Positions 46,665 to 63,866 of a DNA stretch of 64,000 bases are shown here, piece after piece. How positions within the stretch are numbered: position 1 is the first letter of the stretch; each line of letters starts with the position of its first letter. Under the pieces are notes generated by a model. The model saw only the letters and a program-made list of their open reading frames with translations, did no database searches and was not told the origin of the DNA. A program made the position numbers and the translations under genes. This stretch comes from Candidatus Muproteobacteria bacterium (GTDB taxonomy: Bacteria; Pseudomonadota; Gammaproteobacteria; Acidiferrobacterales; Sulfurifustaceae), in the NCBI GenBank assembly GCA_027449605.1, contig DAIDLH010000051.1, positions 45,037 through 109,036 of the forward strand, in the 5' to 3' direction.

Positions 46665-47645
46665 TTAAGCGGTGCTCGCGACGGCTTGAAGGTAATCGGC
46701 ATAGGACTTGGCGATGCCCTCGCGAAAACCGGTCTTGGCTTGCCAGCCGAGTGCGTCCAGGCGTGAGACGTCCAGCAGCTTGCGCGGCGTGCCATCTGGC
46801 TTGGAGGTATCGAACACCAGTTGCCCGCGAAAGCCGACGACCTCGGCGATCAGTTCCGCGGCTTCGCGGATGGTAATCTCCTTGCCGACGCCGATGTTGA
46901 TGAATTCACCGACGTCAACGGCGCTGCATCGCTTCATCAGGAACACGCAGGCATCCGCAAGGTCGTCGCTGTAGAGAAACTCGCGCTTCGGCGATCCGGT
47001 GCCCCAGACCACTACCTCTTTGGCATTCTGCATCTTGGCCTCGTGCATCTTGCGAATCAGCGCCGGCAACACGTGTGAGCCCTGGAGGTCGTAGTTGTCT
47101 CCGGGACCGTAAAGATTGGTCGGCATGACACTCATGAAGTTGGTGCCGTACTGGCGGTTATAGGCATCGCACATCTTGATGCCGGCGATCTTAGCAATGG
47201 CATAGGGCTCGTTGGTGGGCTCGAGCAGCCCCGTCAGCAGATACTCTTCCTTCATCGGCTGGGGCGCGTGTTTGGGATAGATGCAGCTCGACCCGAGGAA
47301 CATGAGCTTCTTCACGCCGTGCTTGTACGAAGCATGGATGATGTTCGACTCCATCATCAGGTTTTGATAAATGAAATCGGCGCGGTAGATGTTGTTGGCA
47401 TTGATGCCGCCAACCTTGGCGGCGGCGAGAAACACGTACTCCGGTTTTTGCTTTTCAAAGAACTCATCGACCGCACGCTGATCAGTGAGGTCGAGTTCGG
47501 AATGAGTACGAGTGACGATATTGGTGTACCCCCCCTCACCCCGACCCTCTCCCGCATGCGGAGAGGGGGAAGTCAAACGGCGCATGATGGCCGAACCCAC
47601 CAGCCCCCGATGACCTGCCACATAAATCTTGCTATCGGATTTCAT
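46665..47645 (-). CDS. fcl: GDP-L-fucose synthase carrying an in-frame repeat insertion
   Basis: [55 protein letters not shown]. Confidence 0.96.
47529..47573. repeat. Palindromic REP-like element inside the fcl coding sequence
   Basis: CCCCCTCACCCCGACCCTCTCCCGCATGCGGAGAGGGGGA, encoding [15 protein letters not shown]; same family as the copies at 62862-62897 and 62934-62969. Confidence 0.85.
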
Positions 47646-47648
47646 AAG

Positions 47649-48767
47649 CTATTCGTGATAATCGTACGCGGAATACCCGTGTCGTTTCACCAGCTCGTCG
47701 CGCTCCGCCGCCTTCAGGTCCTCGCGCACCATCTCGGATACTAATTCCTTGAACTTTATTTTCGGTTTCCAGCCGAGCTTCTTGCGCGCCTTGGTGGCGT
47801 CGCCGAGCAGGGTTTCGACTTCGGTGGGACGGAAATAACGCGGATCGACCCGCACGATCGTCTGACTCTTTTTGGGGCCGTTCTTTTCGCCGCCTTCGAT
47901 ACGGCCGATGACGCCGGCTTCCTTCAGTCCCTTGCCGCGCCACTCAATGATCATTCCCAGTTCCCGGGCGGCGGCGTTGACGAAATCGCGTACGCTGTAC
48001 TGCTCGCCGGTGGCGATGACAAAGTCTTCCGGATTTTTCTGCTGCAATACCAGCCACTGCGCCTCGACGTAATCGCGGGCGTGGCCCCAGTCGCGCTTGG
48101 CGTCCAGGTTGCCGAGATAGAGACAATCCTGCAAACCCAGCTTGATGCGCGCCATGGCCCGGGTAATCTTGCGCGTGACAAACGTTTCACCGCGGATCGG
48201 CGATTCGTGGTTGAAGAGAATCCCGTTGCAGGCATACATGCCGTAGGCCTCGCGGTAATTCACCGTGATCCAGTAGGCGTAGAGCTTGGCCACGGCGTAC
48301 GGCGAGCGCGGATAAAACGGCGTGGTCTCGCGCTGGGGTATTTCCTGAACCTTGCCGTAGAGTTCGGAAGTCGAGGCTTGGTAAAACCGGGTTTCTTTTT
48401 CCAGGCCCAAAATACGGATGGCCTCGAGCAAGCGCAAGGCGCCTAACGCATCGGAATCCGCCGTGTATTCCGGTTCCTCGAACGACACGGCCACGTGACT
48501 CTGCGCCGCGAGATTGTAAATCTCGGTGGGCTGCACCTGCTGCACGATGCGTATCAGGCTGCTGGAATCAGTCATGTCGCCATAATGCAGGACGAATTTG
48601 CGGCCCTTCATGTGCGGATCCTGATACAAATGATCGATGCGATCCGTGTTGAACAGCGAGGTGCGGCGCTTGATGCCGTGCACCTCGTAGCCCTTTTTCA
48701 GCAGAAACTCGGCGAGGTATGCCCCGTCCTGTCCGGTAATGCCCGTGATCAACGCTTTCTTTGCCAT
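47649..48767 (-). CDS. gmd: GDP-mannose 4,6-dehydratase
   Basis: [58 protein letters not shown]. Confidence 0.97.
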
Positions 48768-48769
48768 GC

Positions 48770-50173
48770 TTATTTCGTCCGATTGTATTTGTCTTCGAAC
48801 CGCACGATGTCGTCCTCGCCGAGGTAGCTTCCGGATTGCACCTCGACGATTTCGAGCGGTATGTTTCCCGGATTCTCCAGCCGGTGCGTCGTGCCGAGCG
48901 GAATATAGGTGGACTGATTTTCCGTGAGCATGAAAACCTCGTCTCCCTTCGTCACCCGCGCCGTCCCCTTGACCACGATCCAGTGCTCGGCGCGGTGGTG
49001 ATGCATCTGCAACGACAGCGCCGCACCGGGTTTGACCATCAGGCGCTTCACCTGAAACCGCGCTCCGGCGTCGACGCCTTCGTACCAACCCCAGGGCCGG
49101 TACACCCGGCGATGCGTCTGATACTCGCTGCGCTTCTCCTGCTTGAGGCGATTGACCACCTCTTTGACGTTCTGCGCATGGTCCTTGTGTGCGACCAGCA
49201 CGGCATCCGGCGTCTCCACGACGATGATATCGTCAAGTCCCACCGCCGCGAGAAACCGGTGTTGGGAAATAAGCAGGGCGTTCTGCGTATCATGCGTGAA
49301 AACGTCGCCCTGAACGACATTTCCTTGTTTGTCCCGCGCCGAGGCCTCCCACAGCGACGACCAGGCGCCGATGTCGGACCATCCGGCGTCGAGCGAAACC
49401 ACCGAGGCCTTATCGGTCTCTTCCATCACCGCGTAATCGATGGAGTTCGACTGGCAGCCGGCGAAGGCCTGGGCGTTGACGCGGTAGAATTCGCCGTCGC
49501 GCCGCCCCTGTTCGTACGCCGCCTTGCACGCCTCGAGCATCGCCGGATGGAACCGATTCAGTTCCTCCAGCCATGCGCCGGCCAGCATCATGAACATGCC
49601 GCTGTTCCAGAGATACTCGCCCGAATCCACGTAACCAACGGCGGTTTCCGTGTCCGGCTTTTCCACGAACGCCGCCACGTCGCTGCCGTCGCCTTTTTTG
49701 ATATAGCCGTATCCGGTTTCCGGCGCCGTCGGCACGATGCCGAAGGTGACCAGCTGTCCTCGCTCCGCCAGCACCGCACCCACTTTCACCGCGGAATGAA
49801 ATTCCTTCACGTCTTGTATGACGTGATCGGCCGGCATCACCAGCATCAATGCGTCGTCCGGCGCCGTCTTCATGAGCGTCAGCGCCGCCAGGGTCAGCGC
49901 CGGCGCGGTATTGCGTCCGACCGGCTCCAAGACGATGTCGGCCGGTTTTTTGCCCAGTTGACGCAACTGCTCGGCGATCAGGAAACGATGCTCTTCGTTG
50001 CACACCAGCAGCGGGTCGGCGACGTGCTCCATGCCGTCCAGACGCGCGACCGTCTGCTGCAGCAGCGTGCGTTCGCCCATGAGACTGAGCAGCTGCTTGG
50101 GATATTGCTCGCGCGAAAGCGGCCACAGTCGCGTGCCGGAGCCGCCGGACAGAATGACGGGGTTAATTCTCAT
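48770..50173 (-). CDS. manC: Mannose-1-phosphate guanylyltransferase / mannose-6-phosphate isomerase
   Basis: [48 protein letters not shown]. Confidence 0.96.
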
Positions 50174-62754: not shown

Positions 62755-62840
62755 GATAAATTTTCCGGAAACAGAATCGACAGGATGCCCGGGATCAGCC
62801 GCGCACGAAAACAGGCGCCGAGACGCCCCGTGAATCCACG

Positions 62841-62994
62841 CTAGGGAACCTCTGATTAAGTTCCCTCTCCCTCCGGGAGAGGGCCAGAGTGAGGGGGATC
62901 ATACAAGGGCAAGCACATGAATTTTTTAAGATCACCCTCATCCCTCCCTTCTCCCGAAGGGAGAAGGAGAATGACTTGTTCACAGGTTCCCTAG
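62841..62994. mobile_element. MITE-like element with terminal inverted repeats, flanking CTAG and two internal REP-like hairpins
   Basis: Left CTAGGGAACCTCTGATTAA versus reverse complement of right CTAGGGAACCTGTGAACAA (16/19 match); no transposase. Confidence 0.72.
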
Positions 62995-63866
62995 GCTTGC
63001 ACATCGAACTTCTTGTTCAAGGCCGCGCGCGCATGCTTGGCGCGCGTGAAGGTTTCGCACAACAGCTTGCCGTCGCCCTTTTCGATCGCCGCCATCAGCG
63101 CGCCAAGGTCGTCCTGATACTGGCGCAGCGCCGCCATCAATGCGTCGCGGTTCGCGAGGCAGATGTCGCGCCACATCACCGGGTCGCTGCCGGCGATGCG
63201 CGTGGCGTCGCGGAAACCGCCGGCGGAACATTCGAGGATCGCGCGATGATCGTCGTGCCGCACCACCATGTCCATCAGGCAGTAGGCCAGCATGTGCGGC
63301 AGGTGACTGCTCACCGCGAGGATGCGGTCATGGTCCGCGGCCGAGAGCGTCACGACCTCCGCGCCGGTCGCTTCCCACATCTCGCGCACGCGCGCCGTCG
63401 CTTCGGCGTCGGTCTCCGGCCCCGGCGACAGGATCACGCGCCGCCCCTTGAACATATCCGCCTGCGACGCCGCCACGCCCGATTGTTCGGTGCCGGCCAG
63501 CGGATGTCCCGGGACGAAATGCGTGAAGCGCGCGCCCAATGCGCCGCGCGCCGCCGCGGTCACGCTGCCCTTGACGCTGCCCACGTCGGTGACGATCGCG
63601 CGATTCGTCAGCGCCGGTCCGAGCTCGCCGAGAATTTCCGCCATGCAACCGACCGGCACCGCCAGCACCACCATGTCGGCGTGGCGCACCGCGTCGGTCA
63701 GCGATACTTCCGCGCGGTCGATCACGCCGAGCTCGACCGCCTGCTCCAGATTTCCGACGCTGCGGCCGTAGCCGATGATCTCGTGCACGTAACCGGCCGC
63801 GCGCAGCGCGCGCGCCAGCGAGCCGCCGATCATCCCGATGCCGACGATGCAGAGCTTATCGATCAC
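62991..63866 (-). CDS. tyrA: Prephenate/arogenate dehydrogenase
   Basis: [29 protein letters not shown]...A..SHLPH, GGFRD.TRIA.SDP.MWRDI. Confidence 0.92.

Follow-up and report, generated by a model that had tools for sequence, protein, structure and literature searches.

An old in-frame copy of the BoxC/PIT/TMECO repeat in the GDP-L-fucose synthase gene of Sulfuricaulis-like gammaproteobacteria

How does a palindromic repeat reported from between genes come to be translated inside a conserved enzyme, and what has become of it there? The question is raised by fcl, the gene for GDP-L-fucose synthase (Fcl), in a stretch of 64,000 nucleotides from a Candidatus Muproteobacteria bacterium, which we refer to as the window. 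An earlier note, made from the letters of this DNA, had proposed that Fcl carries about 11 extra residues after its first Rossmann helix, that these are encoded by a hairpin matching two intergenic repeats near 62.9 kb, and that a genomic REP-like repeat had been translated in frame and tolerated.

Profile searches place fcl in an operon of the order manC-gmd-fcl (Table 1). In its SDR Ser-Tyr-Lys residues, its GxxGxxG motif and its gmd-fcl operon context the window protein has the features of an Fcl, and it matches E. coli GFS (1bsv) with an E-value of 2.4e-114, its Ser119, Tyr148 and Lys152 aligning with the catalytic Ser107, Tyr136 and Lys140 of the E. coli enzyme. Against the NCBIfam equivalog GDPFucSynFcl it scores 498 bits at a cutoff of 500; the shortfall of 2 bits would be expected as the cost of the gap penalty incurred by the insert. 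As the window's Fcl, with its insert, lies just under this cutoff, automated annotation may miss the name GDP-L-fucose synthase for it. The window's own Fcl had no record in the assembly index, and the fcl region was absent from the RNA runs searched.

The alignment with 1bsv contains a gap of exactly 11 residues opposite the insert, between helix A and strand 2 of the Rossmann fold, which confirms both the number and the place of the extra residues. A structure model built from a 40-sequence alignment was poor (mean pLDDT 52) and only its secondary structure was used; it has a helix at residues 15-25, a strand at 43-46 and low confidence at 28-36, in agreement with the placement by 1bsv. Because of the quality of the model, surface exposure of the loop rests on the 1bsv alignment and the topology of the Rossmann fold.

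The gene stands at a border, with the conserved manC-gmd-fcl block on one side and variable glycosyltransferase and wzx/wzy genes on the other, and the genes 3' of fcl differ in every relative examined. In one relative, a PIN-domain pair of toxin-antitoxin type lies between gmd and fcl (L001:9146-9794); in another, a second pair of this type, a Polbeta nucleotidyltransferase with HepT, lies between manC and gmd (L208:1014-1848).

By its sequence, the repeat in fcl is a copy of BoxC/PIT/TMECO, a G/C-rich intrastrand-triplex motif that Bergler (in 1992) and Hoyne and Maher (in 2000) are said to have treated earlier. The motif was named first BoxC, next PIT and last TMECO, and its published pattern is CCCTCNCCC-N3-6-GGGNGAGGG-N3-GGGNGAGGG (Holder et al. 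2015, PMC4666352). The same study counted 3610 copies in 262 proteobacterial genomes, obtained the triplex in vitro, noted that a purine-motif triplex is possible in DNA only, and tied the motif to local rearrangement and instability, with no mobility genes found nearby; in E. coli K-12 the copies are "always located intergenically" (PMC4666352).

A scan of the window for the TMECO pattern returned exactly three copies, the one in fcl and two intergenic ones, with 1, 1 and 3 mismatches, against no match in 19 of 20 shuffled sequences and a single match in the remaining one. The fcl copy thus stays within the one stem mismatch allowed by the sequence definition of the family. Further copies as a close inverted pair are present as well, at 62863-62967 within the 64-kb window. 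The intergenic habit reported for the family, which lies outside its sequence definition, is broken by the copy in fcl, which occupies codons 27-38. This copy contains a perfect 8-bp inverted repeat (CCCTCTCC/GGAGAGGG), and the window has the string CCCTCAC-N5-CCCTCTCCC in three places (47533 on the plus strand, 62875 on the minus strand, 62935 on the plus strand) where shuffles predict 0.02, so that the match to the intergenic repeats stands. The name REP-like fares less well: the repeat is palindromic and multi-copy, but it is BoxC/PIT/TMECO and not a REP. Its hairpin part is predicted to form in the fcl mRNA. Relatives have the perfect type B form CCCTCTCCC-CTCGC-GGGAGAGGG-CCG-GGGTGAGGG, the copies in L002, L083, L204, L208, L209 and L211 are without a mismatch, and about 120 kb of related fcl loci held no copy of the motif beyond that inside fcl.

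The two intergenic copies of the window, together with outer inverted repeats, form a doublet predicted to fold into one long hairpin (dG -81.8 kcal/mol, z -6.7), none of 200 shuffles being as stable. At roughly 150 nt, the doublet has a MITE- or REPIN-like layout.

Table 1. Positions of the features discussed (window coordinates, unless a locus L or an accession is given)
Feature	Position	Strand	Basis
fcl, GDP-L-fucose synthase, 326 aa (insert: codons 27-37)	46665..47645	minus	ORF and profile/structure match
gmd, GDP-mannose 4,6-dehydratase, same operon, directly upstream of fcl	47649..48767	minus	profile search
manC, mannose-1-phosphate guanylyltransferase/isomerase, start of the GDP-fucose operon	48770..50173	minus	profile search
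BoxC/TMECO copy in fcl (coding strand)	47533..47567	minus	inverted-repeat and published-pattern scans
fcl copy, C-stem CCCTCTCCG	47567-47559	minus	
fcl copy, loop 1 CATGC	47558-47554	minus	
fcl copy, G-stem 1 GGGAGAGGG	47553-47545	minus	
fcl copy, loop 2 TCG	47544-47542	minus	
fcl copy, G-stem 2 GGGTGAGGG	47541-47533	minus	
Net insertion relative to empty alleles, 33 nt = 11 codons	47535..47567	minus	filled/empty DNA comparison
Intergenic TMECO copy, 1 mismatch: CCCTCTCCC TCC GGGAGAGGG CCA GAGTGAGGG	62863..62895	plus	pattern scan
Degenerate intergenic copy of TMECO with 3 mismatches, in opposite orientation to that at 62863-62895	62935..62967	minus	pattern scan
Inverted doublet, about 150 nt: both intergenic copies and outer inverted repeats CTAGGGAACC...GGTTCCCTAG	62841..62994	unstranded	
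IcmF-like mutase with in-frame repeat	L093:2926-6423		Pfam
NAD-dependent DNA ligase LigA with in-frame repeat	L174:3173-6157	minus	Pfam
Methionyl-tRNA synthetase (MetRS), two in-frame copies	L103		Pfam
Lipoyl-E3 fusion with in-frame repeat	L157:247-2226	minus	Pfam
Type I restriction subunit HsdR with in-frame repeat	L131:455-2212		Pfam
GH31 glycosidase with in-frame repeat	L171:941-2335		Pfam
GlnE with in-frame repeat	L197		Pfam
Bracketed DUF559 loci	L103:2111-2649; L140:5594-6026; L221:1428-1890; L215-L217, L219		
E. coli ycjD (DUF559) locus, L212	NC_000913.3 1351204-1351760		

Among the best 120 relatives and the window's own protein, the Fcl sequences fall into two forms, 69 that are filled (about 326 residues) and 52 that are empty (about 315 residues). 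The filled proteins are 83-92% identical and carry the insert peptide or close variants of it, the empty ones are 80-86% identical and read RRLxxGGY, and the source names of the closest relatives point to Sulfuricaulis. As a control for loop length only, about 75 more distant and diverse metagenome Fcl matches (mostly around 65% identical) were inspected, and all of those among the matches listed have the short RRLxxGY loop; for the history of the gene, alleles were fetched singly. At the DNA level the two forms differ by exactly 33 nt, the empty allele reading CGG CTG CAG GCA GGG GGA TAC and the filled one CGG CTG ACT TCT (CCC ... GAG) GGG GGA TAC. In this comparison the last stem of the repeat is completed by the target's own G run, which leaves the edges of the insertion ambiguous by a few bases. 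Empty alleles were also found beside the filled form in runs X1 and X11, on contigs exactly 33 nt shorter that swap 136, 145 or 177 bases for a divergent stretch shorter by that amount. The proposed in-frame conversion of a repeat into a tolerated peptide is thus supported by empty alleles lacking exactly the inserted bases and by purifying selection on the gene (see below). The insertion is old, allelic and common to a large Sulfuricaulis-like group, rather than of recent origin in this genome.

On the gene tree of Fcl, the filled forms do not separate from the empty ones but are interleaved with them. Two empty proteins (P0093, P0102) are 100% identical to a filled one (P0015) over residues 61-315 and only 83-85% identical around the insert. 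Likewise, comparison of an empty gene (L082) with a filled one (L083) gives 3 mismatches over the roughly 1100 nt that follow position +160, against 37 between -50 and +150. Parsimony requires 21 changes of state on a tree of residues 63-315 and 4 on a tree of the 48 flanking columns, compared to about 38 for shuffled labels. Insert status therefore goes with the local 5' haplotype rather than with the remainder of the gene, which marks fcl as a recombination mosaic, on evidence drawn largely from metagenome contigs, in which chimeras between strains could imitate part of the recombination signal. Most simply, this is read as a single old insertion into an allele of the RRLA(T/S)-insert type, followed by homologous recombination of the 5' segment between lineages.

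To follow the insert at the nucleotide level, we compared eight distinct filled fcl genes, which share 79-86% DNA identity except for one pair (L002/L083, 99%). Outside the insert, 238 of 301 degenerate codons show synonymous variation, so that synonymous sites are nearly saturated across the gene, and the amino acid varies in only 85 of 313 codons, which places fcl under purifying selection. Within the insert, synonymous variation is confined to 4 of 13 codons, significantly fewer than in the rest of the gene (Fisher p 4e-4) or in the flanking codons (36 of 41; p 2e-4), in a test that comprises these 13 codons and eight haplotypes only. The four variable codons hold the pre-repeat codon, the last base of the C-stem (in the window only), loop 1 and loop 2. 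The three 9-nt stems are almost fixed at synonymous sites, and both loops drift, loop 1 by single steps through CTC, CTG, CTT, CGC, CAT and CCG. Because selection on the peptide cannot fix the third positions of Gly, Glu, Pro and Ser codons, we infer a constraint on nucleic-acid structure. This suggests that a DNA hairpin or triplex, or an mRNA hairpin, may be preserved beyond the peptide alone. One decaying repeat with non-compensatory changes (L210) indicates that the constraint on the stems is not universal.

Could the insert have arisen from misassembly, given that short-read assemblies are error-prone at G/C-rich palindromes? A Logan contig from run X1 covers positions 47300-47787 of the window with one difference and no gaps, and contigs of runs X2 and X11 contain the insert at about 87-94% identity. 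In all, about 69 independent protein clusters from JGI, ENA, NCBI and Logan have it. At least four sources of independent assemblies and the contigs of three different runs thus show the same 33 nt, always with the frame kept, and an artefact of assembly or sequencing at the hairpin, which the earlier note had named as a way in which it might fail, is effectively refuted. The interleaving of the two forms might alternatively reflect repeated, independent insertion and excision at a hot spot in fcl and not the recombination of old alleles. The 21 changes on the tree of residues 63-315 and the local instability to which Holder et al. (PMC4666352) tied the repeat would be accounted for in this way. 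However, the tree of the flanks needs only 4 changes, the filled alleles have distinctive flanking codons in common, unlike most empty alleles, and no empty allele resembles the clean excision product of a filled one, all of which makes a hot spot very improbable.

The main rival to a constraint at the nucleotide level is concerted evolution, with the insert as a neutral passenger whose stems are kept alike through ectopic gene conversion from other copies of the motif and not by selection. The repeat is multi-copy and near-identical across genomes, and very short conversion tracts would produce frozen stems beside variable synonymous sites. Nevertheless, the single-base steps in loop 1 fit point mutation from one ancestor, which overwriting by a donor would not produce, and few donor copies lie near these loci; we therefore regard gene conversion as unlikely, albeit as an explanation with some weight. 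Selection might instead act on the protein, with the 11-residue peptide itself being adaptive, for example as an interaction or regulatory loop. Its conservation over about 69 clusters and the recurrence of the PSP..GEGxGEG frame in other proteins would fit such a role, which yet leaves the frozen synonymous third positions unexplained and sits poorly with the many close relatives that thrive without the insert, with the co-occurrence of both alleles, and with a loop-1 residue free to vary (L/H/R/P). An adaptive peptide is thus improbable, though slightly less so than a hot spot.

We favour, with a probability of roughly 85%, a joint reading of one old in-frame insertion, a tolerated loop, an allele shuffled by recombination and a preserved stem structure. 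A single BoxC/PIT/TMECO copy would have inserted once, long ago, into the codons of fcl for the loop that joins helix A to strand 2, in an ancestor within the Sulfuricaulis-like gammaproteobacterial group. Its G-rich strand would be read as PSP-x-A-GEG-R-GEG, a loop rich in Gly, Pro, Glu and Ser, and the reading frame stays open because the insertion measures 33 bases and brings no stop codon in frame. By the alignment with E. coli GFS, the loop would lie on the edge of the Rossmann sheet opposite the NADPH site, and Fcl probably keeps working because of this position; that the insert-bearing enzyme is active is further suggested by its intact catalytic triad and strong purifying selection. 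The 5' segment with the insert would then have been kept as an allele alongside the empty one, and insert status would track the haplotype because homologous recombination moves this segment between lineages.

The repeat, and its passage into proteins, extend well beyond fcl. A scan with one genome per species yielded at least 120 loci, with 158 repeat matches in them, often with several copies within 500 nt. Those among the matches listed include Pseudomonas, Xanthomonas, Enterobacter, Acinetobacter and cyanobacteria, and also Planctomycetota, Chloroflexota, Acidobacteriota and Verrucomicrobiota. With two further copies in the window and a multi-copy family in other genomes, the claim of a genomic repeat is borne out. 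In the 120 loci, 44 long stop-to-stop frames span a copy; 40 of them were scanned against Pfam, and at least seven real genes have an in-frame copy with Pfam domains on both sides (Table 1), so that peptides like that of Fcl do occur in other genes and in-frame insertion of BoxC/TMECO is not unique to Fcl. The LigA, HsdR, GH31, lipoyl-E3 and mutase cases come from Planctomycetota, Polaromonas, Acidobacteriota and unclassified bins. In LigA (L174), the comparison to the E. coli structure 2owo reveals a 29-residue insertion between residues 159 and 162, which includes PSPPWGEGRGEG.

Most of the genic copies are read from the G-rich strand in the same frame as in Fcl, as PSP..GEGxGEG. As the repeat is open in five of its six frames, the preference for this one suggests that a filter acts in favour of a flexible peptide of Gly, Pro, Glu and Ser. 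A literature search for the motifs of the insert peptide found nothing. Most of the scanned spanning frames had no domain on either side and were rejected as spurious G/C-rich frames or upstream extensions; at L161 and L190 the copy probably lies between genes or before the true start, and the spanning frame at L195 has SH3 domains on one side only.

In the loci L216 and L219, each genus has its own variant of the repeat stem, CCCCCTCCC/GGGAGGGG/GGGGAGGG in Sphingomonas and CTCTCTCCC/GGGAGAGAG/GAGAGAGGG in Neisseria. The three segments change together in these variants, as expected if three-stranded pairing matters.

A connection of a different kind leads to genes for DUF559, a Vsr-like endonuclease domain, which are typically bracketed by inverted BoxC/TMECO copies. 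Five of the 120 repeat loci contain a DUF559 homologue, in each case at a distance of 0-16 nt from a copy, and none was found in 709 kb of control loci. The brackets are consistently oriented, the hairpin lying on the far side of each copy and the third segment on the side next to the DUF559 frame; the doublet of the window and the inverted pairs of E. coli are arranged end to end in the same manner, their copies being only 39 or 16 nt apart. In L103, the two copies in MetRS bracket an in-frame DUF559 domain, the whole unit being in frame within the synthetase. Among DUF559 loci of a plasmid collection, four of eight (Azospirillum, Sphingomonas, Sinorhizobium, Neisseria) have lineage-specific repeat variants within about 150 nt, often as pairs and on both sides, and Synechocystis is a weak additional case.

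The repeat also reaches into the DUF559 genes themselves. Tails derived from it form the C-terminus of 28 of 120 DUF559 cluster representatives clearly, and more loosely that of about 20 others; one such tail reads SPSPSRGEG. The DUF559 gene at L221 has no tail and is nevertheless bracketed, one copy ending 17 nt before its ATG and the other starting 3 nt past its stop. E. coli ycjD ends in RRSPSP inside a degenerate copy, and a full TMECO is found 168 nt further downstream, next to a duplicate of the 3' end of ycjD. In E. coli K-12 (L212:1780-1870, between fabI and ycjD), this second copy of roughly the last 40 nucleotides of ycjD lies about 100 nt past the gene and immediately precedes the full TMECO, which suggests an old rearrangement there.

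These brackets hint at the mode of spread of the repeat. Tentatively, TMECO could be the terminal structure of a small DUF559 cassette and not an orphan structural motif, with solo copies and doublets without an ORF, among them the fcl insert and the pair at 62863-62967, as miniature derivatives that land in genes and survive in the PSP..GEGxGEG frame across phyla under structural constraint, a possibility that we put below even odds. The relation would resemble that of MITEs to insertion sequences or of REPINs to RAYTs. In all 10 places shown, out of 24 contigs read, the DUF559 gene of L221 (P0141) occupies the same fixed locus, and it thus gives no direct sign of current mobility. Our literature search found no paper linking DUF559 with the BoxC/TMECO repeat.

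How does the insert compare to known repeats? With BoxC/PIT/TMECO as described, the window repeat shares the pattern (type B, with CCG/TCG as second loop), the multiple copies, the inverted pairs and a setting of elevated rearrangement or recombination. It differs in that the published copies are intergenic in E. coli, whereas that of the window lies inside a conserved enzyme gene, where it is translated and has long been kept; moreover, the published catalogue covers proteobacterial genomes only, whereas our scan finds the motif far outside Proteobacteria. REPs and REPINs are likewise short G/C-rich palindromes, often in inverted doublets that form long hairpins, and the repeat may, like them, pair with one flanked enzyme gene, here DUF559. 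However, BoxC/TMECO is a different sequence family, no RAYT (an IS200/IS605-like TnpA) was seen, and the gene seen flanked elsewhere is DUF559. REPs are not usually conserved across phyla. Their palindrome has on one side a conserved terminal tetranucleotide, GTAG or CGTC (PMC3733652). By direct reading, neither GTAG/CTAC nor CGTC/GACG abuts the repeat in 47520-47580 or 62840-63000, and for lack of such a head we dropped an identity with REP/RAYT.

A parallel in outcome is provided by the Rickettsia palindromic elements (RPEs), which (Ogata et al. 2000, as cited in PMC3184786) lie in frame in protein genes. As proposed here for fcl, a selfish palindromic repeat is tolerated in frame as an extra surface peptide. 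The elements themselves are unrelated in sequence, 100-150 bp long and restricted to Rickettsia, whereas the insert in fcl measures 33-35 nt and its family occurs in many phyla; with this length, and with relatives whose names indicate a Sulfuricaulis-like gammaproteobacterium, membership among the RPEs was rejected. The pneumococcal BOX, RUP and SPRITE repeats and small mobile sequences of enterobacteria (Croucher 2011; Delihas 2007; reviewed in PMC3184786) are also fused to open reading frames, internally or terminally. Within single species, they mostly extend a reading frame at its end or disrupt it, whereas fcl has a conserved internal loop in a housekeeping sugar-nucleotide enzyme.

The BoxC/TMECO family is thus already known, as is the in-frame survival of repeats in the form of RPEs, BOX/RUP and small enterobacterial repeats (PMC3184786). 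New are the translation of BoxC/TMECO inside conserved enzymes, the recurring frame, the frozen stems, the mosaic of filled and empty alleles and the DUF559 brackets. In-frame survival of selfish repeats, best known from Rickettsia, is hereby extended to a 35-nt, triplex-forming repeat found across phyla, whose function and spread have been questions since the 1990s. From the recurring frame, a simple rule suggests itself as to which insertions of the repeat a protein can tolerate. For such questions fcl offers a natural experiment, with filled and empty alleles on near-identical backgrounds, which allows tests of the neutrality of the peptide, of selection on DNA or RNA structure, and of recombination promoted by the repeat at the edge of a variable polysaccharide cluster. 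The association with DUF559, if it holds, would provide a candidate enzyme for mobilizing or recognizing the repeat, and if the cassette reading is true, derivatives of the repeat would supply conserved proteins quite generally with new, flexible loops.
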